In this document: in pieces, positions 5,215 through 62,512 of the stretch | How positions within the stretch are numbered: the stretch's first letter is position 1 | Layout of the letters: each line of letters begins with the position of its first letter | DNA from: an uncultured Candidatus Saccharibacteria bacterium | GTDB taxonomy: Bacteria > Patescibacteriota > Minisyncoccia > Phycocordibacterales > PALSA-1337 | Length of the DNA stretch: 64,000 nt | Assembly: GCA_964645315.1 (NCBI GenBank) | Contig: CAZYBH010000003.1 | Location: 5,789 to 69,788, forward strand | Direction: 5' to 3' | Made by a program: the position numbers and the translations under genes | Notes under the pieces: model-generated | The model's input: the letters and a program-made list of their open reading frames with translations, nothing else | Database searches by the model: none | Told to the model about the DNA's origin: nothing

Positions 5215-5583
5215 CTATGACACTACCGTCTTCATCTTTTCAAGAAATTTATCAAGATTTAACTGATCTTTTACTCTTAGAAAACTTCTATCAAAGATAA
5301 TTTGGTATTCATCTTCATATAGAATTTTTTCTGGCCGATCAATTATTATTACATCAACACCTCCTTTGATGACAGATTTGTGCCAGTTCAACAATCCAGA
5401 ATCGAAATACTTTTTTAATCCGAAATCCTTCCAGAAAGATATTGCTCCAGGATATTTTGGTCCCTCCTTCGGTAACCATGATCCATCTGGTTTATTCAAG
5501 CGGCGAGGATCACTCATTTCAATCTCATTTGAGATTGCTTCATAAATTCCTACGCCATTTGTGATAAATCGGTAATATTCCAT
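5215..5583 (-). CDS. hypothetical protein (122 aa)
   Basis: Track ORF 5215..5835 would overlap ychF by about 250 nt. An internal ATG at 5583 (MEYYRFITNG...) sits just downstream of the ychF stop, so the shorter form is used. Confidence 0.45.
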   Translation of the reverse strand: MEYYRFITNGVGIYEAISNEIEMSDPRRLNKPDGSWLPKEGPKYPGAISFWKDFGLKKYFDSGLLNWHKSVIKGGVDVIIIDRPEKILYEDEYQIIFDRSFLRVKDQLNLDKFLEKMKTVVS

Positions 5584-37619: not shown

Positions 37620-37668
37620 TAAATAAATATGTTACATTTTCTCATGTTAGTTCATTAAAAGAAAATAT

Positions 37669-37994
37669 TCCGGAGTAGCTCAGCGGTAGAGCAGTCGCCT
37701 GTGGAGTTCGCAGCTTCCACAAGAAATTGTGGATGACAAACGAGGTGAATTCGGGGAAACCCCAAATGTAAATAAGGGCAATCCCGAGCCAATCCCATCT
37801 TTGTGATGGGCAGGTGTAGAGACTATCCTTTCCAGGAGTAGTGCGAAGTGAAATATCTTCAAACGAAGCGCCTCGTCCCTAAATTATCAAGTTGGAAACT
37901 CGATAACATGGGAATGATATAGTCCGTCCCTATTAGTAATAGTAGGATAAGCGTAAGCGATTGGTCACAGGTTCGAATCCTGTCTCCGGAGCCC
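37669..37994 (+). tRNA. tRNA-Asn (GUU) interrupted by a group I intron; exons 37669..37702 and 37954..37994
   Basis: Exons splice to UCCGGAGUAGCUCAGCGGUAGAGCAGUCGCCUGU|UAAGCGAUUGGUCACAGGUUCGAAUCCUGUCUCCGGAGCC. U1-A72, G73 and anticodon loop CUGUUAA match bacterial tRNA-Asn (compare B. subtilis tRNA-Asn). Anticodon stem is GUCGC/GCGAU. Confidence 0.8.
37703..37953 (+). ncRNA. group I intron (~251 nt) in the tRNA-Asn anticodon loop, between anticodon positions 35 and 36
   Basis: Conserved core elements: P-like AAUUCGGGGAAA, Q-like AAUCCCGAGCC, R-like GGUGUAGAGACUAUCC, S-like AUGAUAUAGUCC (P7 GACUA/UAGUC). P9 hairpin with GUAA tetraloop. The 5' exon ends in U, which pairs with G37710 in a short P1. 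The intron ends in G (37953). Confidence 0.7.
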
Positions 37995-39614
37995 TAGTGA
38001 CGAAACCTCACATTTTGTGGGGTTTTGTCTTTTATTGCTTGATATTTTAGAGGTTCGAGCGCGCTCTAATTCTTCTTCGACCGCCTGACGACTTTTGATG
38101 ATCGTTTTAATGAAAGAATGGTAATTTACAAAGACCTTTTTGCCTTTTAGGGTGAGGTTCGAGCCAAGGCATGCGAGTATCGCTCTTTTGGCTTTATCAT
38201 CTCCTTTTTCAAACCAAATGTGGGCGTAGCAAGCGAAGTCAAAGGTCTGCTCGGTGAGTTCCACCCACTCCAATACCTCTCTGTTTTTCGTCTTCAATTC
38301 TTCTTCGAGTGCCAGTTTCTTTTTTACTATTCCAACCTTGAGCGTTTGGTATTCTTCATCAGTAATTATCGCTCGCTCACTGTTTGCTGGCGAGGTGAAG
38401 TTGAGTGTCAGTGACTGCAAATTCTTGGTGACTTCCTCAAGCTCTTTGTGCTTGCCTTTGAGGACCACAGAATCGCTGTCAACTTCTGTTTTTCGCAGTT
38501 CATGGAGGTGCTTGATTGCCCAGTCTTTGAATCTTTCCGAAATGGTGATCTCACTGAGCTTTTGTTTTATATCAAGTTCCAAGTTCTTAAGCTCTATCAC
38601 TTTCTCCGGACACTTCACGTCTACTTTTTTCTTGGTGCAATTGTAGTAAACGTAGTGGTGAACATTGCCGTTCTTACATCGCTTTACTTTCGCCTGTGCA
38701 GTGATACTACAGCCACACGTGCCGCATTTCATAAGCGAGGTGAAGGCAAAGCTGCGCTCTGGCCGAGGTCGTGGTTGCATGGTTCTTCCCATGATCTGTT
38801 GGACCTTATTGAATTCTTCTTCGGTTATCATGGCTTCATGTGCGCCTTTGTGCCATTCTCCGCTTTTGTAGGGATATTCAAACCAGCCGTAATAAAAGGG
38901 GTTGCTTAGGAGTGCATAGATGCCGCTTTTAGAAAGATGCTTGCCACCCATATTTCTTCGTTGATACGTTTTCAAATTCAACTCCTTACGAGCCACATCC
39001 CATATTTGAATTGTGCTGTAGTTACCGGTAAGCATGAGGTCAAAGAGTCTCTTTACCACAGGAAAACGTTCAGGGTCCTTCATGATGGTCTTGAATCCTT
39101 TTTCTCGGTCTGGTGTGCTCATATATCCCACAGGACACATGCTTGGTAGCCAGCCTTCTCGGACCTTCTTTGCAAGACCTCGCTTTACGTTTACTGATAA
39201 GTCTCTGATGTACTGGTTGGCCATGCCAAGCTCAACTTGCATCATGAGGACATTGTCCGTTGGGTAGTATGTTCGGCCGAATGTCACAATCTGTGCGATT
39301 GCACTTTGCTGTAGCATCCAGCTTATTTGTCCACCGTCCACAGGGTTGCGTGCAAGGCGGTCCAGTTTCCAACAGATGATTCCATTCGCTTCGCCTTTGT
39401 AAATTCTCTCAAGCATTTTGTTGAATACTGGTCTTCCTGGTTTCTTGGCCGATTGTGATTCGGTAAGGACCTCAACTATCGCCAAGCCTTGCTCTTCTGC
39501 AATCTTCAAGAGTTCATCTTTCTGAGCATCGATTGATGCCGCTTGTCTGTCTTCCGCCTCGCTTGATTTACGAGCGTAGAGGAAGTATTTGATTGTAGGT
39601 GTTTTATTATTCAT
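37965..39614 (-). CDS. large serine recombinase (resolvase/invertase-type catalytic domain + recombinase domain + zinc-ribbon)
   Basis: IKYFLYARKSSEAEDRQ...SIDAQ (catalytic Ser) and LDRLARN motifs. C-terminal Cys-rich region. The 3' end overlaps the last ~30 nt of the tRNA-Asn gene. Start taken at MNNKTPTIKY (39614). Confidence 0.85.
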   Translation of the reverse strand: MNNKTPTIKYFLYARKSSEAEDRQAASIDAQKDELLKIAEEQGLAIVEVLTESQSAKKPGRPVFNKMLERIYKGEANGIICWKLDRLARNPVDGGQISWMLQQSAIAQIVTFGRTYYPTDNVLMMQVELGMANQYIRDLSVNVKRGLAKKVREGWLPSMCPVGYMSTPDREKGFKTIMKDPERFPVVKRLFDLMLTGNYSTIQIWDVARKELNLKTYQRRNMGGKHLSKSGIYALLSNPFYYGWFEYPYKSGEWHKGAHEAMITEEEFNKVQQIMGRTMQPRPRPERSFAFTSLMKCGTCGCSITAQAKVKRCKNGNVHHYVYYNCTKKKVDVKCPEKVIELKNLELDIKQKLSEITISERFKDWAIKHLHELRKTEVDSDSVVLKGKHKELEEVTKNLQSLTLNFTSPANSERAIITDEEYQTLKVGIVKKKLALEEELKTKNREVLEWVELTEQTFDFACYAHIWFEKGDDKAKRAILACLGSNLTLKGKKVFVNYHSFIKTIIKSRQAVEEELERARTSKISSNKRQNPTKCEVSSLGLRRQDSNL

Positions 39615-40452
39615 ATGCGCTTTTAATGTTATCTTCCGACCGTTTTTCACCGTTTTTAAATGGTGGTTTTTGCTCTATGGCAGTTACATTATCGTCACTG
39701 CGTGGTTCCCGTAATTTTCCCGTTATTTCGGGAAAGGTCGTCTCACCGGGCTGACGAACGACAGTATCCCCAGAAGGGTCTCGAATAGCAACTGATTCCT
39801 GACTTCTTGGCATCTGCCATTTCTGCATTGTTCCCCTTAACACATCTCCAATGTGAGTTACAGAATTAGGAGAGTTTTTTCTTAGGTTAGTTAGAGTTTC
39901 ATTATCATCACTGCGATATGGTCGCTTATTGTAACTGCGAGGGCGTTGTTTTTGTAACTGCGGTGGTGCCTCGGATATCTTTATTTTTCGATTCCAGTTA
40001 GGGACCGGCAACCATAGCTCGCTCGCATGGAAAGTGTAGAGATTTACCATGTTGAACATACCATCAGCTCTCGTAACGCCGATAATGCCGTAGCCTTCGA
40101 GGATGCGAATTGCCTTAATGATGCTACTTCTGTTTTTACTGCCGACGAGTTCCTGAATGGTAGTGATACTTGGAAACGCCGCCTGGCTTTCGGTGTTGCA
40201 GTGGACCAAAAGCGCCATATATACTGACGTACATAACTTTGAGAGTGTTGCAAGATATCCGCCTTGCACATATTCGTTATCAACGAAGAACCTGCTCGAC
40301 TTATTCTTTTTGCGAAGTTTGGACCGATCTATCTTGTCATGCAGTCTGTTGAGGTAGGCTTTCTTTTGATTGTGGTTGAGGTCCTTTCTTGTTTTTGATT
40401 TGTCTCTTAGTATCCACTCGATCAATTCCTTGTCGTTTTCCATATTCTTCAA
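39607..40452 (-). CDS. hypothetical protein with central HTH-like segment (possible replication/regulatory protein)
   Basis: FPSITTIQELVGSKNRSSIIKAIRILEGYGII resembles a winged-helix/HTH. The N-terminal region overlaps the 40337..40600 ORF in another frame. Confidence 0.45.
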   Translation of the reverse strand: MKNMENDKELIEWILRDKSKTRKDLNHNQKKAYLNRLHDKIDRSKLRKKNKSSRFFVDNEYVQGGYLATLSKLCTSVYMALLVHCNTESQAAFPSITTIQELVGSKNRSSIIKAIRILEGYGIIGVTRADGMFNMVNLYTFHASELWLPVPNWNRKIKISEAPPQLQKQRPRSYNKRPYRSDDNETLTNLRKNSPNSVTHIGDVLRGTMQKWQMPRSQESVAIRDPSGDTVVRQPGETTFPEITGKLREPRSDDNVTAIEQKPPFKNGEKRSEDNIKSAYE

Positions 40453-40600
40453 GCCACGCTTTCTTTATTGGTCGGTAGACGAAGTTAAAAAGCGTGAGCA
40501 AATTAATTGCCTCATTAGCAAGAACGTCATCAGGAAAGACTGTGCCGGTTTCTTCCAGGTGAAGTTGTTTATATTCTTCTAGTGCGTGTTTGGTAAGCAT
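40337..40600 (-). CDS. hypothetical small protein (87 aa); possibly the 5' part of a frameshifted gene together with 39607..40452
   Basis: Track ORF. Overlaps the next ORF by 116 nt in a different frame. Confidence 0.3.
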   Translation of the reverse strand: MLTKHALEEYKQLHLEETGTVFPDDVLANEAINLLTLFNFVYRPIKKAWLEEYGKRQGIDRVDTKRQIKNKKGPQPQSKESLPQQTA

Positions 40601-40630
40601 AATGAGGGGTTCGACCTTTTGTATGAGGTA

Positions 40631-40669
40631 GTGCTCTTCCCAAGAAACAGAAAGAGCTGAGCCCCCATT
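40631..40669 (-). terminator. hairpin aaagagctgag...ctcagctcttt (11-bp stem)
   Basis: Seen directly, between the HerA 3' end and the next minus-strand gene. Confidence 0.4.
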
Positions 40670-40870
40670 GCAAGTTGACTCAGCTCTTTCCGTGCAATGG
40701 GTATCTTTATCCTAGAATCGAAATTCGTACTAAATGTAGGAATTACTTCTCTAAGATGATCTCATCGTACTGCTCTCAAACGGTAAAAAATGGTGCATTA
40801 CTTTGACCGCTTGAAATAAGGGTATTTTCGTGAATTTCGGTGGTTACTGTGCCATAGACGCAAAAACCCC

Positions 40871-40897
40871 TGAATAGGGGTTGAAAAGCGTACACAG
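40871..40897 (-). terminator. rho-independent terminator just after the HerA stop (cccccuauucagggg + U-run on the minus strand)
   Basis: + strand aaaaacccctgaataggggg. On the minus strand the hairpin is followed by uuuuug. Confidence 0.6.
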
Positions 40898-40914
40898 GGG
40901 CGTTTAGGGGGTAA

Positions 40915-42789
40915 TTAGGCTTTCTTCCACAGATCATCTAAATCTATCGTACCACTTTGAGGCCTTCGTTTCTTATCAAGAAGCTTAATTTTTAAAGAAA
41001 GTGGAAATTGAGTCATTTGTCCAGCAATAAAACAGCAACCTGTAGCAAGGTTTGAAATCGAGTCAAAAGAAAGCTTATCCAAATAACTTACCGCCTTATT
41101 AACTGACTTTAAATCATTTTCGTTCATCAATTTGTGAATAAAATAATTATGAAGCTGAGAAATTATGGTGGGAGAAATATCAGATGGTCTCTGACTAGCA
41201 ATTGTAAGAAAAACTCCAAACTTTCTACCTTCCTTTATTATTTCCTCAAACGTTTCTAGACGATAATCTTTCCAAGTTTCAGACTCTCTTACAGAGTTTT
41301 CAGATAAAATGTTATGTGCCTCGTCAATAATAATATGGAGGGATGTATTATTTTTATAAGTTTTTTTCTGATTCTCGTATAACTTTTTTAGAATGACTAA
41401 TGGCAAAGATTTTTTAATATCTCTATTGGCAGATTTTAGATCTATAACTACCAAGTTGTTGCCTTTTCCAAAAATATTCTTTTTAGCATTTGTACTAGTG
41501 TCAAAGACTTTCTGAATGCTTTTTTTGACACTTTCAAGTCTAGTTATGCAATGATAGACGTGGTCATCGTGAACTCTGTTATCTAGCAAATCATAAAGTA
41601 ATTGCATTCTTGCAAAGTCGAGGAACTTTTCAATTATATTGTCAGGAAATACATAAGTATCTGCCTGAGTATAAAATACTTGTGATTTATATTGCTCGTC
41701 AGTTATCTGGTCATAATCAGTAGTTCCACCACATTTAAAGTATGAATGGGTATTATGCCATTCAGGAATAACAAAATCTTGGTTGTCAGTTTCAATCTTA
41801 AGTATTTGTTTGTATCGATCTATACACAAAAATGCCAGTTCTTTATTTTTTAATTTCAAAATTCTGAGCGCTATTAACTTCAAGTTATTTTTGAAATAGT
41901 CATTAGAATTGTTTTCTTTTGTTATCTTTTTAAATAAGCTTATCGAGCGATTCAAAAATGGCTTTTGTGTTTTTTCACTAGCACCAGAAAGTATTGATAT
42001 AAGTTCAATATCAATAAAACCATTTTCGTTCAAAGGAACACGATTTTTGTTATTTATTTTTTCTAACTCAATTTCAGTATTAAGTTTATATACTTTTTTC
42101 TTTTTACTAAGAACATCTGAAGATGAGTATTCACCATTAAAATCAATAAATATAAACTTGGATTTGGATTTAAATTTTTCATTAAGATTTTCTAATCCAA
42201 ATAGTTCTGCATACATTTTTGCAAGAGTATTTGATTTACCAGACCCTGTATTGCCAAAAATACCAATATGACCTGCAAATAGTTTTTTAGCTGAAATTGA
42301 AATATCTTGAGTCTCTTCATCAATCAGTGATCCAAGGGTAACGGAAAGCTCTTTTTCATCAGAAAGCTGATGTAATATTTCAAATTCTTCTCTAGAAAGA
42401 AGTTTACATTCACTACCAATTAGAGGCATTTCTTTGATACCGTGTTGAAAGTTAAAATCGCTATCATAGAATCCAAAAACTGAAACATTGAGAAATCGGC
42501 TTATCTTCTTATTCTCATTTGTATATTTTTTCTTAGTTTGATATCTATCCTCTTCGAGATACTCACCCTCGACTTTACAAATTATTTCAGTAAAACCTTT
42601 AACTATTTTCACATAGTTGGATAGCCCAACAGAAACATTTTTTATTGTTCTACCTTTAAAAAATAGATGAGGGAGATTCTTGTCATTCTTTACCTTAACA
42701 ACAATATCTTTGCCCTTAACACTAAATACACTGCCAATGGTAAATACGGAATTATCAACTAGTCTTTCATGTAAATTAAAGTTGTTCAT
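40915..42789 (-). CDS. herA: HerA-like (DUF87/FtsK-HerA superfamily) ATPase, SIR2-HerA defense system component
   Basis: Walker A IGIFGNTGSGKSNTL and Walker B LHIIIDEAHNIL (DEAH). Start taken at MNNFNLHERL (42789), which overlaps the SIR2 stop by 14 nt. Confidence 0.8.
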   Translation of the reverse strand: MNNFNLHERLVDNSVFTIGSVFSVKGKDIVVKVKNDKNLPHLFFKGRTIKNVSVGLSNYVKIVKGFTEIICKVEGEYLEEDRYQTKKKYTNENKKISRFLNVSVFGFYDSDFNFQHGIKEMPLIGSECKLLSREEFEILHQLSDEKELSVTLGSLIDEETQDISISAKKLFAGHIGIFGNTGSGKSNTLAKMYAELFGLENLNEKFKSKSKFIFIDFNGEYSSSDVLSKKKKVYKLNTEIELEKINNKNRVPLNENGFIDIELISILSGASEKTQKPFLNRSISLFKKITKENNSNDYFKNNLKLIALRILKLKNKELAFLCIDRYKQILKIETDNQDFVIPEWHNTHSYFKCGGTTDYDQITDEQYKSQVFYTQADTYVFPDNIIEKFLDFARMQLLYDLLDNRVHDDHVYHCITRLESVKKSIQKVFDTSTNAKKNIFGKGNNLVVIDLKSANRDIKKSLPLVILKKLYENQKKTYKNNTSLHIIIDEAHNILSENSVRESETWKDYRLETFEEIIKEGRKFGVFLTIASQRPSDISPTIISQLHNYFIHKLMNENDLKSVNKAVSYLDKLSFDSISNLATGCCFIAGQMTQFPLSLKIKLLDKKRRPQSGTIDLDDLWKKA

Positions 42790-43789
42790 CGTCTTTATCC
42801 GGTTCAAGGACCTCTTGTTCTTTATTTGTGAATATACCAGAAAGGAATTCTGTGCTTTTTTCAAATGGCAAATTATTTTCTACATAGAAGTTTGACTTTT
42901 TCTTTTCCTCTAGATCATCTACCACTTCATCGTATTCTTTGTGATAAAGATAAACTACTATTAGGGTCGGATTGTTCTTCATTACACCGTAAAGTAACTC
43001 TCTTATATGTTTATCTTTAAGAGAAAATCCTAATATAAACAAAACACTATTTTCTTTTTCCAGCTCTAACGTAAACTTCCTTAGCATGGAAGCGTAATTA
43101 GTATCTAGAACTGTTTCAAGGTGTTTTTCTGCATTTGGATTGATGACAGCAACTTGTTTATACCCTGTAGCAAAATCATTCCCGGTTTTACTATCCAGAT
43201 CATCAGCAATATGCGAACCATTTGAATAGATGATTTTTTCCTCTTTTGTCTTCCAAGAAAGTGAACCGTGAAGTTTAATGATATTGAAAAGTGGAATGTC
43301 GGAAGTGTTATCAAATTGAAGGCTCTTATATTTTTGAATTTTGTTAAAATTTGCCACGCTAAATACTGAATTGATTTGCCCGGCAAATCCATCATTGTAC
43401 GGTATACCTAAACGCTCACAGGCATCTTCTATAAACATGTCAAAGTTCGTGCTGAAAATATTGACTTGTTTATTTACGATATGTAATGATCGACGGGAAA
43501 TAGTATCAGCCCAAAAATTTAAAAATGTATCATAGTTCTGTTTGGTTTTAGTAAGCTTACCTTGTTCTGCCACATCCACCTCAAAGGTTGAATTTAGAAT
43601 AGCTTTTGATTTGCGGATGATCTTATAATAATCTTTTTGTGCGACCTCTTTGGTAGCATCATTATTCATTCGGTTTTCAATGTCTTGCAGGGTCGAAAGA
43701 TAGTCAAGAGAACAACCAGAACCAATAAGTAGATTTATGTGGCCACTTTGAATTATTTCTTTGAGTTCTTTTTTATCGATTTTTTTCAT
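42776..43789 (-). CDS. SIR2-like NADase domain protein, SIR2-HerA defense system component
   Basis: INLLIGSGCS (GAGIS-like), FSTNFDMF (TQNID-like) and IIKLHGSLSW (catalytic HG) motifs. Lies immediately upstream of HerA in the same orientation. Confidence 0.8.
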   Translation of the reverse strand: MKKIDKKELKEIIQSGHINLLIGSGCSLDYLSTLQDIENRMNNDATKEVAQKDYYKIIRKSKAILNSTFEVDVAEQGKLTKTKQNYDTFLNFWADTISRRSLHIVNKQVNIFSTNFDMFIEDACERLGIPYNDGFAGQINSVFSVANFNKIQKYKSLQFDNTSDIPLFNIIKLHGSLSWKTKEEKIIYSNGSHIADDLDSKTGNDFATGYKQVAVINPNAEKHLETVLDTNYASMLRKFTLELEKENSVLFILGFSLKDKHIRELLYGVMKNNPTLIVVYLYHKEYDEVVDDLEEKKKSNFYVENNLPFEKSTEFLSGIFTNKEQEVLEPDKDDEQL

Positions 43790-46101
43790 ACTTTTAATTT
43801 GACCCACTCACTCCAATCACCACGTTCGCATTTTTCCCAGTTGTAAGTAGATTCTTGGTTTAATGTCCAATCTCCATTTCTCTCAATCACAACACCACCA
43901 AAAAGCTTTTTATTCTTCTGGGTCTTTATGTATTGGTACAAAGCCTCAGCCTTAGCTTTTGTGTAAGTTTTACCATCACGATCACCTGAATCCTTTACTT
44001 CAAATATACCGATCTTTCCATCAGTGAATTGGACCAGATAGTCCGGATAGAAAGTATAGATAGCACCAGAGTATTCATACTTCACGCCAAAGTATTCCTG
44101 TTTGTTTTCTCCATTTTTCCACCACCAAGTTATTTTTGAGCTATTATCATTCAAAAACTTCTCAAAAGATTTCTCGGGTAGGGATCGGTCAATGTTTAGG
44201 TAGCATGGCTGATAGGCATACTTTTTGGTAGGAACAATTTCATCAGTAAATTCGTTATAAAAAAGCTCTATAGGGAGTTCAAAAGCATATTTCTTTTCGC
44301 TTTCTTCTACTCGCTTTCGGACCTCAGCCTCTTTGACCGTCTTGTATTCATCGACTGCCTTAGTAAGAATCTTTTCAATCGCTGGACGATTGTCTTTGTG
44401 CATACAAAGCTTTTGAATGAGGAGTATTTCCTCATGCCAATCTTCTGAATTGAGGTATTTTCTGAACCACAAATAAATAGCAGTCTTTACGCTTGGAATA
44501 GAGCGCTTAACATTTCTAAATGGACCGAGCTGTGACTTAATCATTTGCTCAAAGAAAATCTGCAATTCATCAGCAGCAACACTAAGCTTTGCCATAGCAG
44601 TGGGATCTATATTTCCTTGAAGTTCATCAAAGTTTTTAGCACTGATATGAGTGTCAGCAATAATTTGTTGCTGGTACTTTTCAAGCTCAACATCAATACC
44701 CATATTCTTGAGTGACGTCTTGATCTTCACCAGTTTCTCACCATCTTCTATACCAAGTTCTCTGTTTACTACCTTTTCAAATACCGGCGTAAAGCTTGAG
44801 GTGATGTCTCCGTAATCAGCACGTGCTTTATAGTAAGAATCAATTTTGAGCGGCTTATACTCCTTAACTCTATTAGCCTTTAGATGTTTGATTATGTTTG
44901 GATTGTATTCTTCTTTCTTAACTGAAATAGATTCCAAGTTTGTATAGATGTAACCACGATTAAGAGCCTCATTTTCATAATGCTTTTGTTCTGGCATACG
45001 TAAGATTCGTCCGACAGTCTGTATTTCAAAAACAATATTCGAAGATTCTCTAAACTTCACAAGAATATGAGCACGAGGACAGTCCCATCCAGTATCAATT
45101 GCTTGTTTGAATATCAAAAACTCAATCTGATTGTCCGATTCAGAAATCCACTCGATAGTGTCTGATTTTTGTTCAGCAAGCCAAATAGCAAGCTTTCCAT
45201 TTTTCTCTGTAATACCCTTATCACCAAGAAACTTTTTAACAGCATCAATCTTTTGATCACCAGCCTCGGATGTAGGAATCTGTATTAAGACAAGAGGATT
45301 AATATCAGAATCTTCTTTTGCAAAAGCCTTCTTAAGTTCAAGACGTTTTTTATATGCCGCCTCTAAGACTGCTGTCTGTGAATCATCTTCTGATTTTGCA
45401 ATCTTCTCAATATCCTCATTGATGATGAGCTCTTTCTTAATCATCCCTTCTTCGATAACGTCTTTTGGATTCACCTTTACCAATCCAGCGCGAGTTTCAA
45501 CAATATCTTCAGCTGTAATTTTTATACTTGGTGTGGCACTCATTTCAATCGTTACATCGGCAGCAATAAGCTCACGAAGTTCCTGAGCGCGACCTGTAGA
45601 TGCGTTGGTGTGACTCTCATCAATAATAAGAATTATCTTTCTCTGTTCTTTAGTTTTTTCAAGTACATCACGGAAATTAAGTTTCTCACCATCTTTCATG
45701 GCGAGGTTTTTCCAATCACCAGACTTACCATCCTTGGCACGTAGTTTTTCCCAGTTTGCCACTACGACTTCATTCTGAACAATACGCTCTCTACCACCAC
45801 TAAATTCACCCTCAACAAGTGAGACACGAGGAAAACCCCCGAAGATTCGCTCGAGAGATCGCTTACTCTGTCCATGAAGATCACCTTTACCAATACTCAT
45901 CCAAATAAAACAAAGATCTTCGTTTGGAAGTTCTTTTATAAGACTCTCTATAAAAATAGCAGTCATGACAGTCTTGCCTGATCCGGTAGGGGCTTGAAAT
46001 ACACAAACTTCACCAGGACCGTCAAAATCCAAAAGTTTAACTGTCGTGTCAACAAGCTGGTTGACTGCTTTTTCTTGATAGGGTTTTAAATTAATACTCA
46101 T
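43786..46101 (-). CDS. res: Type III restriction enzyme Res subunit (SF2 helicase + C-terminal PD-(D/E)xK nuclease)
   Basis: FQAPTGSGKT (motif I), IIDESH (motif II), MSATP (motif III), QTVGRILR (motif VI), and C-terminal PDYLVQFTDGKIGIFEVKD. Confidence 0.85.
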   Translation of the reverse strand: MSINLKPYQEKAVNQLVDTTVKLLDFDGPGEVCVFQAPTGSGKTVMTAIFIESLIKELPNEDLCFIWMSIGKGDLHGQSKRSLERIFGGFPRVSLVEGEFSGGRERIVQNEVVVANWEKLRAKDGKSGDWKNLAMKDGEKLNFRDVLEKTKEQRKIILIIDESHTNASTGRAQELRELIAADVTIEMSATPSIKITAEDIVETRAGLVKVNPKDVIEEGMIKKELIINEDIEKIAKSEDDSQTAVLEAAYKKRLELKKAFAKEDSDINPLVLIQIPTSEAGDQKIDAVKKFLGDKGITEKNGKLAIWLAEQKSDTIEWISESDNQIEFLIFKQAIDTGWDCPRAHILVKFRESSNIVFEIQTVGRILRMPEQKHYENEALNRGYIYTNLESISVKKEEYNPNIIKHLKANRVKEYKPLKIDSYYKARADYGDITSSFTPVFEKVVNRELGIEDGEKLVKIKTSLKNMGIDVELEKYQQQIIADTHISAKNFDELQGNIDPTAMAKLSVAADELQIFFEQMIKSQLGPFRNVKRSIPSVKTAIYLWFRKYLNSEDWHEEILLIQKLCMHKDNRPAIEKILTKAVDEYKTVKEAEVRKRVEESEKKYAFELPIELFYNEFTDEIVPTKKYAYQPCYLNIDRSLPEKSFEKFLNDNSSKITWWWKNGENKQEYFGVKYEYSGAIYTFYPDYLVQFTDGKIGIFEVKDSGDRDGKTYTKAKAEALYQYIKTQKNKKLFGGVVIERNGDWTLNQESTYNWEKCERGDWSEWVKLKV

Positions 46102-47920
46102 AAATTTGTTTGTATACGTCTAGAATCTTTTGTGGAATTGGCTCGACCGTAACATCTTTCCATCCACTAAAATCTTTTTTATTTAATCCAAGAGGATCAA
46201 GAGTAAAACAGTAGAGAATCTTTTCTCCTTCGATCTTACTTAAATCCTTTTTAAGTTCTGATAAGGCCTTCCGATCTAGGGAATAGTAGGCGGCAAGAAC
46301 CCTATTACCTTTCTGGAATACTCTATAATCATCAGTTGTTTTTACTTCATCAAAAATACCTTCACGTAGACAAAGCATTTCTGTACATTCCTTTGTCATA
46401 CGGATCTTCAAATCATCTTTGTTTGCAGTTTTCTTGATGAATTTAGTTTTGAAGTATTTTAGAGATCCTACACCAGTATTTGTGAGAACATTGTTTAATC
46501 TAGGATATGTTTTTTCGAGACAAATATTTTCTTCATTATTTGTACATAAAATAAATTTATGTTGCGTACCTTTATCCTTATTAAGCTCTACAACCGCATG
46601 GCCTGTTGATCCACTTCCTGCAAAAAAGTCTAGAATTGTCGCATTATCATCTGAAACAAAATGAATTAGTTGCTTTATCAATCTAATTGGTTTTTTACCA
46701 TTCTTAAAATCAATCCCACCTTCTTTAGCAACGTTACCCATATCAAGATAAAAGCCTGGCCACCAGTCACCCCTGATAGTAGTTACACCGTAAGTTTGGT
46801 AATAGTCATCAGCCTTTCTAACTTTATCTGATAAGCGAATTCTTTGTTTATATTCTCCCTTACCGTTATATCCAACTAAATAAGATCGATCATTTGAGCC
46901 ATACTCAATTAAGATACCCTCTTTAACTTTAGATAGAACTTCTTTGTCTTTTATCTCTACAGTATCGTGAATACGAACAATCTGATCTGCTTTTTTATTT
47001 ATAAAATCTCTTACTTCATCAAGTTTTGCATAAGCATCAGAGATTTGATTATTAGTCATCGATCTCTTTCCTTTTGAATCTTTAGCTAAATTCAAAAAAC
47101 ATAATTTTTCAAATATCTTGTTATCCGCACATAAAACGCTTGTGAGTGATGTCTCTGAATAAGTTCCATCCGTATTTTTATTTATAAACAGGGAGTAGTG
47201 ATTGTCGTATTCAATCGGATCGTACAAAACATTTTTTCCGATAGTCTTTCTTCCATCTTTTGAATACACAAGAATATACTCGGCATTTTTTACTATATTA
47301 CCCATCTTTGCTGATCTTACTTTTTGACCTTGGACCGTAGACATCTGAACGTGCAAAGTGGTAACAAAATTATTTAAACCAAAAACCTCATCGCACAGTA
47401 GTCTAAGCTGAGACTGTTCATTGTCATCTATCGAAATAAAAATAACTCCAGTCTCTCTCAGTAGATTTTTTGCTAATCGCAACCTTTTTGACATGAAAGA
47501 CAACCATTTGCTGTGTTTATATTCGTCCTCACTATCAACATAATTGTCGTTATAAATAAAATCCCTATTACCAGTGTTGTAGGGTGGGTCAATATAAATA
47601 ACATCAACTTTTCCTTGATGAGTGAAATTTAAGACAGAGAGTGCATGGTAGTTATCGCCCTCAATCAATATGTTTACTGGTCTAGTGTCGTCTTTGTCAG
47701 TAATTTCTTTTCCTTTTACTTCCTTAAGAACTGGTAGTGCATTTTCGGCATCTTTCTCGAACTGTTCTTTCACCTTATCTTCATCCCAGATAAGTCCATA
47801 TTTCTTTCGAGATTCAAGCTTTTCTACAATTTTAATTAGATCCTCTTTGCTAAGGTTGGAATAATCTTTCTTTGAATTCTTATTGGTTGCAATGGGATTC
47901 ATTACACAACACTTTACCAT
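46091..47920 (-). CDS. mod: Type III R-M Mod subunit (beta-class N6-adenine DNA methyltransferase)
   Basis: DPPY (motif IV: IYIDPPYNTGN) precedes motif I FxGxG (ILDFFAGSGSTG). Overlaps the res start by 11 nt. An alternative start is MNPIATN at 47902. Confidence 0.85.
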   Translation of the reverse strand: MVKCCVMNPIATNKNSKKDYSNLSKEDLIKIVEKLESRKKYGLIWDEDKVKEQFEKDAENALPVLKEVKGKEITDKDDTRPVNILIEGDNYHALSVLNFTHQGKVDVIYIDPPYNTGNRDFIYNDNYVDSEDEYKHSKWLSFMSKRLRLAKNLLRETGVIFISIDDNEQSQLRLLCDEVFGLNNFVTTLHVQMSTVQGQKVRSAKMGNIVKNAEYILVYSKDGRKTIGKNVLYDPIEYDNHYSLFINKNTDGTYSETSLTSVLCADNKIFEKLCFLNLAKDSKGKRSMTNNQISDAYAKLDEVRDFINKKADQIVRIHDTVEIKDKEVLSKVKEGILIEYGSNDRSYLVGYNGKGEYKQRIRLSDKVRKADDYYQTYGVTTIRGDWWPGFYLDMGNVAKEGGIDFKNGKKPIRLIKQLIHFVSDDNATILDFFAGSGSTGHAVVELNKDKGTQHKFILCTNNEENICLEKTYPRLNNVLTNTGVGSLKYFKTKFIKKTANKDDLKIRMTKECTEMLCLREGIFDEVKTTDDYRVFQKGNRVLAAYYSLDRKALSELKKDLSKIEGEKILYCFTLDPLGLNKKDFSGWKDVTVEPIPQKILDVYKQIYEY

Positions 47921-48045: not shown

Positions 48046-48100
48046 AAATTTAAAGTTGGGGGCTTAACTTTAAATTTGCCGATTCCAAATTAAAAGTTAC
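48046..48100. promoter_or_regulatory. three alternating half-sites AAATTTAAAGTT / AACTTTAAATTT / AAATTAAAAGTT, ~130-180 bp upstream of mod; near-identical element at 62459..62512
   Basis: Half-sites at 48046..48057, 48066..48077 and 48087..48098. The last overlaps the stop codon of the Zn-ribbon gene. Confidence 0.55.
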
Positions 48101-48390
48101 TGTCCGGTCCACTCTTGCTCACAAACCGCACATTGTACATAGCCGGTATGTTCAAAATTGTTGGTAAATCCATTAGATTGATACGTTTTTGTTGTCTCAT
48201 CCCAGTAGAACTCGTCATCGATAATAGTTTCTACAAGTTTACGATCAGAGCCACAAAACTGACAGGTGTGTTTTGGATATTTTTTAGTCTTTCTTTCCAT
48301 ACGGACGATCATTGATCGAAGGCTGGAAGAAGTCAATGAAAAGCTAAAACCGCCCATTTCGAGACGGTTTCGGATACTCCTTCTACGCAT
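48097..48390 (-). CDS. small zinc-ribbon protein (CxxC ... CxxC)
   Basis: CQFCGS ... CAVCEQ. 97 aa. Confidence 0.5.
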   Translation of the reverse strand: MRRRSIRNRLEMGGFSFSLTSSSLRSMIVRMERKTKKYPKHTCQFCGSDRKLVETIIDDEFYWDETTKTYQSNGFTNNFEHTGYVQCAVCEQEWTGQ

Positions 48391-48422
48391 GGCAGACGAG
48401 ATAATATAAATATAACTTTCTT

Positions 48423-48770
48423 TTATTCAATCACAAAATCTAGCTGTTCCTCTGGAATGCCTAATGATCGGCCATAATCGCAGGCATCCTTCCATGTTTC
48501 CTTTTGATTGTACTTAAACTCAAAGACTTTGTCTTTAAATACAGCGATTACATCGTTACCGTTCCAAAAATGCATATACCACTTGCCGGACTTGATATAT
48601 CGAGAAACTTTTTGAATATCATCCTTAGTAACTTTTACTGTATACAAATGCCATCGATCGGCAGGATTCTCATCTTTTGAAATTCTAAGACCACTGATAT
48701 CTAAGTCATTAATAATTCTATTATCTTCAAGACTTTCTTCTACGATTGTGCCCTTATAAGTTATGTTCAT
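48423..48770 (-). CDS. hypothetical protein (115 aa)
   Basis: Track ORF, tightly packed between neighbouring genes on the same strand. Confidence 0.45.
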   Translation of the reverse strand: MNITYKGTIVEESLEDNRIINDLDISGLRISKDENPADRWHLYTVKVTKDDIQKVSRYIKSGKWYMHFWNGNDVIAVFKDKVFEFKYNQKETWKDACDYGRSLGIPEEQLDFVIE

Positions 48771-48771
48771 G

Positions 48772-49518
48772 TTATTTATTTAAATTAAAAGTAAAACCAT
48801 TTCTACTCCAAAACCAAAGAGGTGGATGCATATCAATAGGATCAATACCGCTGTTTTTTAGTAAATCTCTCCACCGTTCTGAAATTGCATCTTTTGTTAA
48901 ATTGGTTGCCTCTTCTGGAGAAATTACACCTAGTTTTACTGAGCATTGAGTAATGTGAGTATCGGGTGCAATTTCTATTTGGTCCCGATTATTTAGACCA
49001 ATTTTACCGTAAGTACTTATAATAAATGACCAATAATTAAATATCTTCGGACCAGATAAATAAGGAAATCCTTTCTTATGCTCAACCTTAACAAGCTGTT
49101 TTAAATTAATAAAATCACTGTCTATTGTTTCAAAGAATTTTGTGAACGAACCCCATTCTTCATGAATTGTCTTTGCGATTATTCTCCATGTATTCACGTG
49201 TTTATTAGGTTGAAGTGCAACTTTATATTTCATTAGTGCCTTACGAACCTCATCTTCCGAAGCCTTAGAGACAGCTTTTACATCAAATACAAATCTAGTG
49301 TCGGCGTCATTAAAAGTCTTGAGCGCAGATTCCCATAATTTATAACTATCTCGCTGATAGTTTAAGGCCATTGGTAAAGTAAAATATGCGATTCTAAATT
49401 CTTTGTCTGTATCAGAAAAGTCTGGACTTGAGTCTTCTGGCATAACAGTTTGTCCGAGCTTACCTGATTTAAAAGCATCAATGAGTGTTTTGCAATTTTT
49501 GAGTAAGTCTTTATTCAT
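48772..49518 (-). CDS. HhH-GPD superfamily DNA glycosylase-like protein
   Basis: GFPYLSGPKIFNYWSFII (HhH-like hairpin region) followed by IEIAPDTHITQCSVKLGV. Compare the VDTHVxRVxxRLG catalytic Asp region of Endo III/AlkA-type glycosylases. Confidence 0.5.
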   Translation of the reverse strand: MNKDLLKNCKTLIDAFKSGKLGQTVMPEDSSPDFSDTDKEFRIAYFTLPMALNYQRDSYKLWESALKTFNDADTRFVFDVKAVSKASEDEVRKALMKYKVALQPNKHVNTWRIIAKTIHEEWGSFTKFFETIDSDFINLKQLVKVEHKKGFPYLSGPKIFNYWSFIISTYGKIGLNNRDQIEIAPDTHITQCSVKLGVISPEEATNLTKDAISERWRDLLKNSGIDPIDMHPPLWFWSRNGFTFNLNK

Positions 49519-49573
49519 TAGTTAATTGCAATTTTATCATTTTTGACTCTTTTTTGCTAAAATAGTAATCACT

Positions 49574-50107
49574 ATGACATTAATCTACATACTCACTGGA
49601 ATCATTGTTGTTATTGGTGTTGTTGTTGGACTTCTGAAAGATAAGTTTGATTTTATAGACGATAAACCAAAATATAACTATAAACGTCGCAATTGGTTTC
49701 TAACTAAAGCTGAACATGAATTTTATGATGCACTTGTGAAAGTGGTCGGTAACGATTACATCATCTTTGCTCAAGTTCATTTACCAACACTTCTTGAACA
49801 TAAGGTCGTAGGACAAAACTGGAATGCAGCATTCAGACATGTGAGTCAAAAGTCTGTAGACTTCGTACTTTGTGACAAAGCGTACATTTCTCCAAAGCTT
49901 GCTATTGAGCTTGATGATAAGTCACATGAAAGGCCTGATCGTGTGGACCGAGATATTGAAGTTGAGCGTATTCTTAAGGGCGCAGGTCTGCCACTTATAA
50001 GGATCCAAAATCATGGAACATTTAATCCTCAAGAGTTAGCTCAAAAGATTAGGATCGCTATAAATCCTAGCGATACTTCGCCATCTCTTTCTCAGTCGGC
50101 CTCGTAA
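49574..50107 (+). CDS. DUF2726-like protein with N-terminal TM helix (predicted restriction-endonuclease-like fold)
   Basis: FLTKAEHEFYDAL ... YIIFAQV ... VDFVLCD ... IELDDKSH, resembling DUF2726. Confidence 0.55.
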   Translation: MTLIYILTGIIVVIGVVVGLLKDKFDFIDDKPKYNYKRRNWFLTKAEHEFYDALVKVVGNDYIIFAQVHLPTLLEHKVVGQNWNAAFRHVSQKSVDFVLCDKAYISPKLAIELDDKSHERPDRVDRDIEVERILKGAGLPLIRIQNHGTFNPQELAQKIRIAINPSDTSPSLSQSAS

Positions 50108-50121
50108 TTCCAAAGAAACCC

Positions 50122-50191
50122 TGCTTGATATTCGGTAGCCAAATATGGGCTTTATTCGTCTTCCAAAAGGTTCCTATTTCTCGTGCAATGT
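50122..50191. repeat. ~70-bp direct repeat, copy 1 (copy 2 at 50415..50483, ~90% identical)
   Basis: tgcttgatatt.ggtagccaaatatggg..ttattc...ttccaaaaggttcctatttctcgtgcaatgt is present twice. Each copy ends at an ATG. Confidence 0.75.
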
Positions 50192-50217
50192 CGAGCATTA
50201 TTATTAAATTTTACTCT

Positions 50218-50400: not shown

Positions 50401-50414
50401 ATAATACATAACCT

Positions 50415-50483
50415 TGCTTGATATTTGTAGCCAAATATGGGCCTTATTCTCTTTCCAAAAGGTTCCTATTTCTCGTGCAATGT
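50415..50483. repeat. ~70-bp direct repeat, copy 2
   Basis: See 50122..50191. The terminal ATG (50479) opens a 35-codon ORF, MLQMKNRTSIMLEAILLSHHLLFNPHVALNSFKYF. Confidence 0.75.
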
Positions 50484-50727
50484 TGCAAATGAAAAATCGC
50501 ACATCAATAATGCTAGAAGCCATTCTTCTTTCTCATCATCTCCTTTTCAACCCGCATGTTGCCTTGAATTCGTTCAAATATTTCTAAGAGATTTTTCCCA
50601 ACCTCTTACAATTTCCAAAGACTGTTCCTCAAGTTCAGCCAGATGTACCAACTTAAGTGGTCGAGATAATTAGGATTCTTTCGCCTTTTCTATTGCCATG
50701 ATTAAAAAATCTGTATCTCTCATAACT

Positions 50728-59302: not shown

Positions 59303-62300
59303 TTAATCAGTACGAACTAAATCAATCTCTCGCATAATCCTGTCTGTTTCAATAAGCAATGTAATTATTTTTTGATAGTGTTTTAAATCATCACTGGATA
59401 ATGTTCTACCTTGCCGGTCTTTAAGCCATTTTTGCACAGGTTGATATGCTCCTATCGTAAAGTTCCAGGCAGTTTCTGGTACATTGCCGAAATATTGTGT
59501 CTGATTAATAAAAACTTTCCCATCTTTATATTTTGGGTACTTCTCGTCCACGACATCAGTTCCAACCTCAGGGAATGTAGTGAGTAACGTATTTAATTTT
59601 GAAGATTCCATCAAGTGGAGTTCTCTTAACTCTTTACCTAGTTTTACCAACGAATTAAATATGGCCTTATCTTTTGGATAAGGTACTCTCGGGAAATCAA
59701 TCTTCAAAAACTCTACATACTTCTTACGATAATCGGGTGAATATAGAACGGCGTATACATAATCGAAGACGTCTTCAGGGGTAATTTTGTTTACAATCTT
59801 TTCAAAGTTGTTAATAATTTCCTTGTTCAAATTTATGACTTTAGAGCCATCATTTGCATAAAGGTATAGAGGTAATACATAGTCAATTTCACTTGTCTTA
59901 TTTGATATAAGGGTCGATTCAGTAATATACTTTGAAACCAATACATGCTGATACACATCTCCGGATTTTATCTGCCTTAAAACATTCAAAACAATGTTCC
60001 CTTTAGATAAATGTTGCATGACAACTTTTCTTGATCGCTCTACAAAATCATCACTGTAATAGATGAATCGATCATCAAATGGGCGATAACTTATTGGTAC
60101 TAGATTAGTCTCATCATATTGGTGTTTGAGTGCATTTACCGCTTTCCATTTCAAGTTTTCTTTTAGATCAAACTTCTTCAGCGCATCTTTTGCATCCTCG
60201 GTCCTTAGAAAATCAATTATGCGATCTTTCAGGGTTTGTTTATTAAAATCGATCACAAAAGCGTCGCGCGAAGTTACGATACCAACGCTTGATATAGGAA
60301 AAAGATCCGCTACGGAAAAACCCTTTCTATATTCTTCCAGAGTTTTCGTATCTCGTGCCACCCACTCAAAATTCGGAGCAGAAGGTTTTATCTCAGTCCA
60401 TTCCAAGGTATCAAGAGACCCATCGTTAAGGTATCCGAATTTATGATTACGAGCCCCATAAGAATCTGCTTTGAATACCTTACAGTTTTTTGGTGATTTA
60501 CCCTTATGCTTAATACCTATGAATATTGAGACTCCTGTTTTTATATTAAATACATTCTCATCTTTGCTTCCATCAAGAGCTTTTTCCTTTTTGTTTGCGT
60601 TTCCGTGGAGATCAAGCACGTATATCTTTTCAAATGTCTGCATCAAATGATGGCGCATTCCACGGAAGGTTGGATTATCAATATATCCATGTGCTGTAAT
60701 CATGGCCACAACGCCTTCATCTGTTTTTTCAATCATGCTTTCAGCCAATCTGATGAATTTTACATAGTCGTCGTTAAGCCACTTTGAATTTCTTTCCTGT
60801 AACTTACCCCCACCTGGTTCGGCTTTGTATACATCATTACCTTTATAGTGAGCGTTGCTTGATTCACCGGAATAGGGAGGGTTACCAATGACTACCATAA
60901 TCGGCAATTCATTTTTTACCTTATTCGCCTGATTGGATTCTTCTGTAATAGCTTTTCCAAGCCCAATATCAAAGAGGGTCTTCTCCTGTATTTCAGCTTT
61001 CTCAAGAGAGTTTGTCAGGTATATACCAAGACGAGTGTTTTCTATTTTTGCGCCACTCTCAGCGATCGTGGATGAAAGTTTAAGATGGGCAATCGTGTAC
61101 GACGCCATCATAAGCTCGAAACCGTGCATTCGCGGTAAAAGATCTTCATTCACATATGAAGACCACCTACCTTCCTGTCCTATAAAAGATTTCTTTATAT
61201 GAAGTATTGCTTCATTTAGAAATGTTCCGGTACCCGTTGCCGGATCAAGTACCTGAACTTTATGTACAGACACTTTTCCACGCTTTCCCTGAACCTCTCT
61301 ACTAATACTTATCTTAGAATTATCGGCAAGACCTTGAGGCAAATCAAATTCCTTTTTTAGAATGTCATCAACGGCACGGATAATAAAACGAACTACAGGG
61401 AGTGGTGTATAGAAAACACCCATCTTCTTACGTTCTGCGGAATCATATTCCTGAAGGAAGTCCTCATAAAAATGAATGATGGGGTCTTTGCTTTCATGGA
61501 CTTTTCCAAAAAGATCGGTTTTGTAATATTTATGTATAATTTCTTTAACATCTGCATGGTTAAATTCCTCACACAACTCATTAACTATATATTCGATTCG
61601 ATTATCGAAAGACGATCCTGCGATATGATTAAAGAACTCTCTCAAAAATGGATTTGATGGTGGTATAAGATCGCGAGCTTCTTGTCTAGTAAAATTCTCT
61701 TGCGTTTTATCATTAAATCGTGCAACAAAAAGTCCATATACTAGTGTTTGTGCATACATATCAGCAAACTTTGTATGATCTAGATCAGCCAAAAGTAATT
61801 TTTTTATAACTTCATAAACACCAAGAAGATTTTCATTTCTTGGGTTTCTTTCATCTTCTAAAAACTTTTTTACATTATCTCTTATACGACGAGCTTTTCC
61901 CGCCATAACCTTCGAAAGCACTGCGCCAGATCTTATAGGTTCCTTGGACTTTTTGATAAAATCGAAGATTGTATCTGCCAGTAATTGAAAATACTTTTCG
62001 TCCGCGGAAACAATACCATTATCAAGTTTACCAATAATAACCGGATCGACTTGACGCGTACCATTTACATAAAAACGAAAATCCAAACCATTAGTAAGTA
62101 TAATGTTTGAATAGCCGTAATATCGGACCATTTGTTCACTTTTTTCTATATCATCTAGCAGGACATCAATATCTTTCGCTTCTGCATAGGCTACAACTAA
62201 TTTTTCCTTAAGAAATATAAAATCTGGAGCACCATGTTCGCTGCGCTTTGGTTCATTTATGACATTCAAGCTAGTTATCTTTTCAAAAAGTTCTTTAAGT

Positions 62301-62383
62301 GCTGGACGATAAGAATGTTCTCGTGCATGACCACTACTGTGTGTTTCTATTACTTTTTGAATAAAAGCTGAAACAGGATTCAT
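59303..62383 (-). CDS. Type IIG restriction-modification enzyme (N-terminal PD-(D/E)xK nuclease + gamma-class N6-adenine MTase + TRD; MmeI-like architecture)
   Basis: N-terminus APDFIF...AYAEAKD (PD..ExK). MTase motif I VLDPATGTGTFL and motif IV VIGNPPYSGE. 1026 aa. Confidence 0.8.
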   Translation of the reverse strand: MNPVSAFIQKVIETHSSGHAREHSYRPALKELFEKITSLNVINEPKRSEHGAPDFIFLKEKLVVAYAEAKDIDVLLDDIEKSEQMVRYYGYSNIILTNGLDFRFYVNGTRQVDPVIIGKLDNGIVSADEKYFQLLADTIFDFIKKSKEPIRSGAVLSKVMAGKARRIRDNVKKFLEDERNPRNENLLGVYEVIKKLLLADLDHTKFADMYAQTLVYGLFVARFNDKTQENFTRQEARDLIPPSNPFLREFFNHIAGSSFDNRIEYIVNELCEEFNHADVKEIIHKYYKTDLFGKVHESKDPIIHFYEDFLQEYDSAERKKMGVFYTPLPVVRFIIRAVDDILKKEFDLPQGLADNSKISISREVQGKRGKVSVHKVQVLDPATGTGTFLNEAILHIKKSFIGQEGRWSSYVNEDLLPRMHGFELMMASYTIAHLKLSSTIAESGAKIENTRLGIYLTNSLEKAEIQEKTLFDIGLGKAITEESNQANKVKNELPIMVVIGNPPYSGESSNAHYKGNDVYKAEPGGGKLQERNSKWLNDDYVKFIRLAESMIEKTDEGVVAMITAHGYIDNPTFRGMRHHLMQTFEKIYVLDLHGNANKKEKALDGSKDENVFNIKTGVSIFIGIKHKGKSPKNCKVFKADSYGARNHKFGYLNDGSLDTLEWTEIKPSAPNFEWVARDTKTLEEYRKGFSVADLFPISSVGIVTSRDAFVIDFNKQTLKDRIIDFLRTEDAKDALKKFDLKENLKWKAVNALKHQYDETNLVPISYRPFDDRFIYYSDDFVERSRKVVMQHLSKGNIVLNVLRQIKSGDVYQHVLVSKYITESTLISNKTSEIDYVLPLYLYANDGSKVINLNKEIINNFEKIVNKITPEDVFDYVYAVLYSPDYRKKYVEFLKIDFPRVPYPKDKAIFNSLVKLGKELRELHLMESSKLNTLLTTFPEVGTDVVDEKYPKYKDGKVFINQTQYFGNVPETAWNFTIGAYQPVQKWLKDRQGRTLSSDDLKHYQKIITLLIETDRIMREIDLVRTD

Positions 62384-62458
62384 AATTAAAGAGCATTATA
62401 GCATTTTGAGCGCCAAAAATAAAGGTATTTTCCCCTTAACCCGTATTCAGTCCCCTCA

Positions 62459-62512
62459 TATTAAAACTTAACGCCTTAACTTTTAATTTGCCCAATTCAA
62501 ATTAAAAGTTAC
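62459..62512. promoter_or_regulatory. second copy of the AACTTT(T/A)AATTT half-site element: perfect 14-bp inverted repeat TAACTTTTAATTTG-n7-CAAATTAAAAGTTA plus an upstream partial half-site
   Basis: Arms at 62477..62490 and 62498..62511. Lies ~95-130 bp upstream of the Type IIG gene start. Confidence 0.55.

Follow-up and report, generated by a model that had tools for sequence, protein, structure and literature searches.

A strongly conserved, previously unannotated protein family with a predicted HhH-GPD glycosylase fold in Candidate Phyla Radiation bacteria and DPANN archaea

Introduction

The described enzymes closest to the protein reported here are members of the helix-hairpin-helix (HhH) superfamily and include Qng1, AGOG, EndoIII, MutY, and the Dag glycosylases. 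With these we compare a 248-amino-acid (aa) protein encoded in a 64,000-nucleotide (nt) stretch of DNA from an uncultured Candidatus Saccharibacteria bacterium (GenBank assembly GCA_964645315.1, contig CAZYBH010000003.1, positions 5,789 to 69,788 of the forward strand); this whole stretch is called the window below, and coordinates refer to it. Candidate Phyla Radiation (CPR) bacteria and DPANN archaea have minimal genomes and depend on salvage, and their DNA repair and nucleotide salvage are poorly understood. Assigning a substrate to the 248-aa enzyme would fill a gap in the map of CPR/DPANN repair or salvage.

Qng1 (PDB 7u07; PF10343/DUF2419), of about 320 aa, is a queuosine-5'-monophosphate N-glycosylase. 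Its β2-β3 and β4-β5 hairpins and a conserved C-terminal tail block the DNA cleft, and the β4-β5 insertion lies just before K199 (PMC9881137). Dag enzymes are single-gene HhH-fold glycosylases that destroy 7-deazaguanine-modified phage DNA; they combine a Lys/Asp pair with an Asp...Trp base pocket, are prone to horizontal gene transfer, escape sequence annotation, and are enriched in integrons and defense loci (bioRxiv 10.1101/2025.10.29.685425). Brig1 and Brig3 belong to the uracil-DNA glycosylase superfamily, the fold of which differs from that of the 248-aa protein.

Fold, motifs, and proposed activity of the 248-aa protein

On balance, the evidence tips slightly toward the 248-aa protein being a base-excision enzyme of the HhH superfamily that stands alone, most likely as a DNA glycosylase/apurinic-apyrimidinic (AP) lyase, and is encoded beside a recombinase-borne island of Type III restriction-modification (RM) and SIR2/HerA genes. 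The gene and its two diagnostic motifs are as follows.

48772 to 49518, minus strand: 248-aa gene, encoding an unannotated HhH-superfamily (AGOG/Qng1/EndoIII-like) protein with a predicted glycosylase fold.
49030 to 49068, minus strand: HhH hairpin motif, F151 to W163 (FPYLSGPKIFNYW), with the Lys158 codon at 49047-49045; invariant in the alignment of close homologs.
48940 to 48972, minus strand: putative catalytic-Asp motif, I183 to S193 (IAPDTHITQCS), with the Asp186 codon at 48963-48961; invariant in the alignment of close homologs.

The AlphaFold2 model of the protein (predicted local distance difference test [pLDDT] score of 87.9) is all-helical, has no β-hairpins, and predicts an HhH-GPD glycosylase fold. 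A Foldseek search of the PDB placed Qng1/DUF2419 first (E 3e-3, template modeling [TM] score of 0.57), with EndoIII, MagIII, OGG1, and MutY next, all at a probability of ~1.0 and 10 to 15% identity; TM scores across Qng1 and these four ranged from 0.45 to 0.58. The HhH motif is placed between model helices 136-142 and 157-169.

The residues that would form the active site are conserved well beyond the close homologs. Mean column identity is 74% in an alignment of 39 close homologs, in which the C terminus is variable, and in an alignment of 59 diverse members, K158 is retained in 56 and D186 in 57, with F151, P152, L154, G156, and K158 each retained in at least 52. An earlier note, made from the letters of the window alone, had called the protein glycosylase-like on the strength of an HhH-like segment and the IAPDTHITQCS motif. 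Both features do occur in the protein and hardly vary across the family, and the catalytic Lys/Asp pair that it proposed checking by alignment is near-invariant. Fold type, HhH lysine, and catalytic-type aspartate thus all support the glycosylase-like call. We take the motif to resemble the "AVDTH" of EndoIII. D186 would be the equivalent of the catalytic Asp of HhH-GPD enzymes, judging from this motif and from the alignment to the AGOG profile.

In the mechanism that we propose, the intact HhH hairpin (LSGPK) would bind DNA, a base bearing damage or a modification (probably a purine) would be flipped into the pocket, and Asp186 would cleave the N-glycosidic bond. Lys158 would act either as a Schiff-base nucleophile, as in a bifunctional glycosylase/AP lyase, or as a residue that positions the sugar. 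We infer, with a clear preference, that the substrate is DNA and not free nucleotides, because the HhH is intact, the hairpins and tail that close the cleft of Qng1 appear to be missing, distant members bear 4-Cys motifs, and others are fused to DUF6884.

Sequence family and likeness to known glycosylases

The family is large and has gone without a name. Homologs of the 248-aa protein fall into 3,842 sequence clusters, uniformly labeled “hypothetical,” and no Pfam, NCBIfam, PHROG, or PADLOC model scored above threshold. The sole sub-threshold profile match was AGOG (PF09171; 16.7 bits against a cutoff of 26.1 bits), confined to the C-terminal 60 residues; such sub-threshold AGOG alignments span the Asp186 region, and one distant member (P0326) reaches the AGOG cutoff at 27.3 bits. 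PF00730 did not match, nor did PF10343, which matched only a separate C-terminal domain of one fusion protein (P0267). HMMER searches of the PDB returned noise only, whether the query was the single sequence or a profile of the family. The family thus combines the HhH-GPD motifs and predicted fold with a match to no curated sequence model. A homolog in a Halogranum virus (haloarchaeal), at 23% identity, bears the annotation endonuclease III, and searches of plasmid and phage collections yielded remote haloarchaeal matches only.

Among characterized enzymes, AGOG resembles the 248-aa protein in size (~250 aa), in its all-α, two-lobed HhH fold, in lacking an Fe-S cluster, and in its long-spacer Lys...Asp pair. 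The two differ in that the N-terminal halves are unrelated in sequence, and AGOG lies outside the top 50 Foldseek matches. EndoIII and MutY share the fold and an “xDTH” Asp motif; their Lys-Asp spacer is 18 residues, compared with 28 in the 248-aa protein. Of the 63 full-length sequences of distant members, at least 15 carry a C-terminal 4-Cys motif ~60 residues past the Asp, in a place equivalent to the Fe-S loop of EndoIII/MutY; the motif is absent from the window subfamily, which has two Cys residues and no Fe-S motif.

Qng1 shares both motifs: its FPSF...K199 corresponds to FPYLSGPK158, and its Asp motif ADYKVPQ..LG (in the context FADYKVPQ...LG) parallels PDTHITQ..LG. A local hhalign comparison with a diverse alignment matched FPYLS to the Qng1 FPSF weakly (E 1e-3, probability of 19%) and over the HhH region only; a global hhalign of a low-diversity family alignment against Qng1 failed to align. 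Besides being shorter, the 248-aa protein is predicted by its model to lack the β2-β3 and β4-β5 hairpins of Qng1, and its HhH motif runs uninterrupted through the position of the β4-β5 insertion. It also lacks the conserved C-terminal tail: its C terminus varies among close homologs, whereas the tail of Qng1 is functional.

Domain fusions occur in five distant members (P0267, P0278, P0366, P0404, and P0308). P0267 is joined to a true Qng1 (Q_salvage) domain (129 bits to 7u07), another member carries a Ham1/ITPase domain, and three are joined to DUF6884, which resembles YaaA and has been linked to DNA-lesion binding (PMC11701544).

An alternative hypothesis, which we regard as unlikely, is that the protein is an N-glycosidase of the Qng1 type with free nucleotides or nucleosides as its substrates, in base salvage or pool sanitation in auxotrophic CPR and DPANN cells. 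The rank of Qng1/DUF2419 at the top of the structural matches and the fusions to a Qng1 domain and to a Ham1/ITPase domain are consistent with this hypothesis. Against it, the hairpin insertions and tail that distinguish Qng1 (PMC9881137) are missing, PF10343 does not match, and related subfamilies bear the EndoIII-like 4-Cys motif and the DUF6884 fusions.

Distribution and genomic neighborhoods

The family is common to CPR bacteria and DPANN archaea and very strongly conserved across them. A pattern scan of 185,579 GTDB species genomes matched at least 226 relatives. The best 80 of them come from Paceibacteria, other CPR lineages, and DPANN archaea and are 58 to 87% identical to the 248-aa protein; identity in the loci that we examined was 58 to 88%. 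Bacterial and archaeal copies are ~60% identical, and the archaeal assignment of one locus is backed by an adjoining aEF-1alpha gene. Such unusual conservation across domains implies horizontal transfer under strong constraint.

The gene has no conserved partners. When neighbors were clustered, no family recurred in more than 6 of 77 loci. Annotated contexts include a BglII RM system and a PIN gene followed by NUDIX; an AAA_15/21 ATPase followed by a glycosyltransferase; purD and def followed by CYTH, NUDIX, and a resolvase; and, further, peptidase S51, aEF-1alpha/DnaG, and CTP synthase. The peptide deformylase gene def, seen in two relatives (L005 and L099) and in the window, was rejected as a conserved syntenic neighbor (1 of 80 GTDB loci). 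We also sampled 150 random proteins encoded within 4 kb of the gene at 67 loci, a qualitative sample with no matched control set. These matched 143 Pfam families, led in frequency by generic methyltransferases, CTP synthase, SMC, oxidoreductases, and FtsA, and the sample showed no enrichment of RM, recombinase/integrase, DNA methyltransferase, or defense genes. The NUDIX and CYTH neighbors in several contexts, and an NADAR gene in the downstream slot of one 87%-identical relative, would suit an enzyme of free nucleotides; an association with NUDIX was rejected, as it was not recurrent among the sampled neighbors.

A second alternative, which we consider quite doubtful, is that the gene is a single, horizontally mobile, Dag-like antiviral glycosylase that is merely parked beside defense genes. 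Dag enzymes are likewise single HhH-fold proteins with a Lys/Asp pair that evade annotation and are prone to horizontal transfer (bioRxiv 10.1101/2025.10.29.685425); our comparison with them is by description only. The closest solved structure, Qng1, is 7-deazaguanine-specific, and one member is fused to a Qng1 domain. The distribution of the 248-aa gene is patchy and crosses domains, and in the window the gene lies with a DUF2726 (nuclease-like) gene in a 1.7-kb indel relative to a related locus (L012), next to the Type III RM and SIR2-HerA genes. Of five annotated contexts of close relatives, four include an RM, methyltransferase, or recombinase gene at no more than ~5 kb, and among 80 GTDB loci, 5 have a serine recombinase homolog close to the gene. 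Unlike those of Dag, however, the neighbors of the 248-aa family in our qualitative sample are ordinary genes, with no defense, methyltransferase, restriction, or integrase enrichment; PADLOC has no match for the protein; the archaeal loci resemble housekeeping regions; and the degree of conservation (74% mean column identity, 58 to 87% identity across GTDB loci) would be unusual for a defense effector. In addition, the part of the Dag supplementary tables covered contains, by locus tag, no Patescibacteria. If the protein were Dag-like, Dag-type immunity would extend to CPR bacteria and DPANN archaea.

Several of these observations count against a stand-alone base-excision enzyme, the reading that we prefer. 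Its best structural match acts on a nucleotide, not on DNA, and the Qng1-domain and Ham1/ITPase fusions point to nucleotide-pool chemistry, as do NUDIX genes nearby in three annotated contexts. The RM, methyltransferase, and recombinase genes near close relatives are a further point. Finally, the pattern scan matched only 226 of 185,579 GTDB species (a lower bound), bacterial and archaeal copies are ~60% identical, and some close relatives have the gene at this site and others do not; this is not the pattern of core repair and resembles that of a mobile accessory gene.

More speculatively, the family might serve throughout CPR and DPANN as an effector encoded by one gene, exchanged horizontally, and excise modified guanine of the 7-deazaguanine type, either from invading DNA, as Dag does, or from a breakdown product, as a new salvage route. 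We think this improbable, and it would explain the Qng1-like pocket, the Qng1 fusion, the patchy cross-domain spread, and the position beside defense cargo.

Gene layout and the proposed three-gene module

The earlier note had grouped the 248-aa gene with the next two minus-strand open reading frames (ORFs) as a three-gene operon and a candidate defense or DNA-modification-sensing module. All three ORFs are present as it described (49518-48772, 248 aa; 48770-48423, 115 aa; 48390-48097, 97 aa), and the first two are genuine genes, each with many homologs. The elements that bear on their transcription are as follows.

49531 to 49560, minus strand: promoter-like site before the 248-aa gene (TTAGCA-18-TAAAAT with a TG extension; consensus match only).
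48423 to 48770, minus strand: 115-aa gene, encoding a conserved small α/β protein, 1 nt after the 248-aa gene.
48346 to 48371, minus strand: predicted terminator-like hairpin (10-bp stem plus T-run) that closes the 248/115 bicistron.
48097 to 48312, minus strand: Zn-ribbon gene, probably of 67 to 71 aa, starting at M27 (48312) or M31 (48300).

Reading along the minus strand, the order is promoter-like site (49560-49531), 248-aa gene, 115-aa gene, terminator-like hairpin, and Zn-ribbon gene. The 248-aa and 115-aa genes are separated by a single nucleotide (TAA c ATG), and the 248-aa gene is probably cotranscribed with that of the unrelated, widely distributed 115-aa protein in a unit closed by the predicted hairpin (48371-48346), which also appears in the minimum free energy fold. 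Because the hairpin sets the third gene apart, a three-gene operon is unsupported; a second predicted promoter-like site (48336-48308) follows the hairpin, ahead of the Zn-ribbon gene, which is probably transcribed separately.

The 97-aa ORF is over-extended, and the real gene runs from about 48312 or 48300 to 48097. We place the start there because of the lengths of the homologs, the point at which DNA homology with a relative begins, and the location of the hairpin within the N-terminal codons. The Zn-ribbon homologs (21 clusters) are 64 to 100 aa long, mostly 67 to 71 aa, and cover only the C-terminal ~52 to 80% of the ORF, mostly ~58 to 72%; L012, the closest relative (96% protein identity), shows nucleotide homology starting at 48346; and the hairpin falls within the nonconserved N-terminal extension. 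The distance from the 115-aa gene to the true Zn-ribbon gene is therefore 110 to 120 nt. The CxxC...CxxC motif reported in the ORF is present (C43/C46 and C87/C90).

The 115-aa family (148 clusters) occurs in CPR bacteria, Bipolaricaulota, archaea, and Firmicutes (Peptococcaceae), with a mean column identity of 66% and the invariant motifs EESLxD, RWHLY, and WYMHFW; the plasmid and phage collections held no match. Its AlphaFold2 model (pLDDT 91) had no significant fold match in the PDB or in BFVD (viral), and the modeled fold may be uncharacterized. A role as a PUA/EVE/ASCH-like reader of modified bases was a guess that we found unsupported. Elsewhere, the 115-aa gene adjoins a Dam/MutH RM system, DUF3800, an integrase, or a kinase-like AAA gene.

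That the three proteins form one defense or modification-sensing system, or an RM accessory, is very hard to sustain, and we consider the idea largely refuted. The genes are adjacent and co-oriented, a defense island adjoins them, the 248/115 pair recurs in one relative (L102), and a Zn-ribbon homolog lies ~550 nt downstream of the 248-aa gene in two others (L103 and L104). Against the idea, in addition to the hairpin and promoter-like site before the Zn-ribbon gene, the families differ in size (3,842, 148, and 21 clusters), and the partners are essentially absent from the loci of 248-aa homologs: of 86 such loci, one has a 115-aa homolog within 6 kb (at a distance of 4 kb), and none has a Zn-ribbon homolog in that range. 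The 115-aa and Zn-ribbon genes each occur without a 248-aa gene in the 5 kb read on each side (L007 to L013 and L094 to L098). Searches of PHROGs, NCBIfam, and PADLOC matched none of the three proteins.

The intact trio was found in none of ~100 fetched contigs and loci, many of them short, and partial synteny was confined to relatives at least 86% identical; three near relatives, at ~87% identity, share part of the layout. The trio is thus not conserved as a unit; it is local, genus-level synteny with a variable slot and not a functional module. The earlier note had named alignment of the 248-aa protein to a housekeeping family, orthologs outside islands, and an unconserved trio as the outcome that would count against it. 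Essentially that outcome was obtained: orthologs are found outside islands and the trio does not stay together, the one exception being that the 248-aa protein falls in no named housekeeping family. The proposed new defense system is absent, and a false lead is removed.

Near relatives, the variable slot, and flanking repeats

Among relatives ~87% identical in the 248-aa protein, the slot after the gene is occupied by the 115-aa gene, by an NADAR gene, or by a repeat and an opposite-strand gene, which also argues against a trio. L102 (~87% identity) has the 248/115 pair with an identical 1-nt spacer and is the only locus at which a 115-aa gene adjoins a 248-aa homolog. A 248-aa protein identical to that of L102 is found on another contig, where an NADAR gene follows.

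On this contig, in ERZ21966605, the 248-aa protein is 87% identical to that of the window, and a gene for a 268-aa NADAR-domain protein lies 1 nt downstream in place of the 115-aa gene. NADAR proteins are themselves N-glycosidases or ADP-ribosyl-guanine hydrolases, and their presence in the downstream slot may hint at shared chemistry.

In L103 and L104 (~87% identity), a ~118-nt repeat comes after the 248-aa gene; next are a 102-aa gene on the opposite strand and the Zn-ribbon homolog (67% identity). The repeat is also present in the window.

50079 to 50196, minus strand: ~118-nt conserved repeat, bounding the 115/248/DUF2726 block; second copy at 50410-50498.

In L103 to L106, the 248-aa gene is immediately followed by a copy with 93% identity. 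In L012, the repeat directly precedes the Zn-ribbon gene, and the 5 kb read on each side contains no 248-aa gene; relative to this 10-kb stretch, window positions 48347-50079 (the 115-aa, 248-aa, and DUF2726 genes) constitute the 1.7-kb indel. The DUF2726 gene lies upstream of the 248-aa gene on the opposite strand. These arrangements suggest that the 248-aa gene is gained or lost through recombination between ~118-nt repeats.

In L103 to L106, the repeats flank the 248-aa gene as direct repeats. Copies are located at 380-476 and 1607-1724 in L103 and at 4821-4948 in L012 (a single copy), and nucleotide identity between relatives is 88 to 93%, exceeding that of the flanking genes. We rejected the repeat as a structured RNA (no Rfam match; weak consensus fold, -7.4 kcal/mol).

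The neighboring defense island

Downstream of the Zn-ribbon gene, on the same strand, are genes for a Type III mod (47920-46091), res, SIR2, HerA, a helix-turn-helix (HTH) protein, and a large serine recombinase (39650-37965); the co-oriented mod-res and SIR2-HerA genes that the earlier note described are confirmed. Its statement that the trio is wedged between two RM systems stands for one side only: the Type III system adjoins, but the other RM gene, of Type ISP (59303-62383), lies at a distance of 10 kb, with glyoxalase, phosphoribosyltransferase, ABC transporter, and other ordinary genes between it and the locus.

The stretch from 37965 to 47920 (minus strand) forms a contiguous, co-oriented block of Type III mod-res, SIR2-HerA, HTH_36, and large serine recombinase genes. 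It looks like an integrated mobile defense island inserted beside the Zn-ribbon gene. Immediately beside the large serine recombinase gene, Rfam matched a group I intron at 37623-37946 on the plus strand (73 bits, E 1e-16), to which we could assign no tRNA, rRNA, or protein gene as host.

At the same position, L012 has AbiE, an Eco57I-type methyltransferase, and T5orf172. There the Zn-ribbon gene again precedes defense cargo, of a different kind (AbiE, the Eco57I-type methyltransferase, and T5orf172/ResIII); the Zn-ribbon gene marks the edge of a variable cargo region. A short palindromic element overlaps the end of this gene.

48047 to 48105, minus strand: element A, a conserved stretch of ~55 nt with a 12-bp perfect palindrome (AAATTTAAAGTT N9 AACTTTAAATTT), overlapping the Zn-ribbon stop codon.

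Further copies are found in the window at 62458-62512 (before the Type ISP gene), in L012 at 5209-5267 (before AbiEi), and in L103 at 3318-3367 (before Fic). Each time, element A just precedes differing defense or toxin cargo, namely, Type III mod, Type ISP RM, AbiEi, and Fic. It could be a shared operator, terminator, or recombination site.

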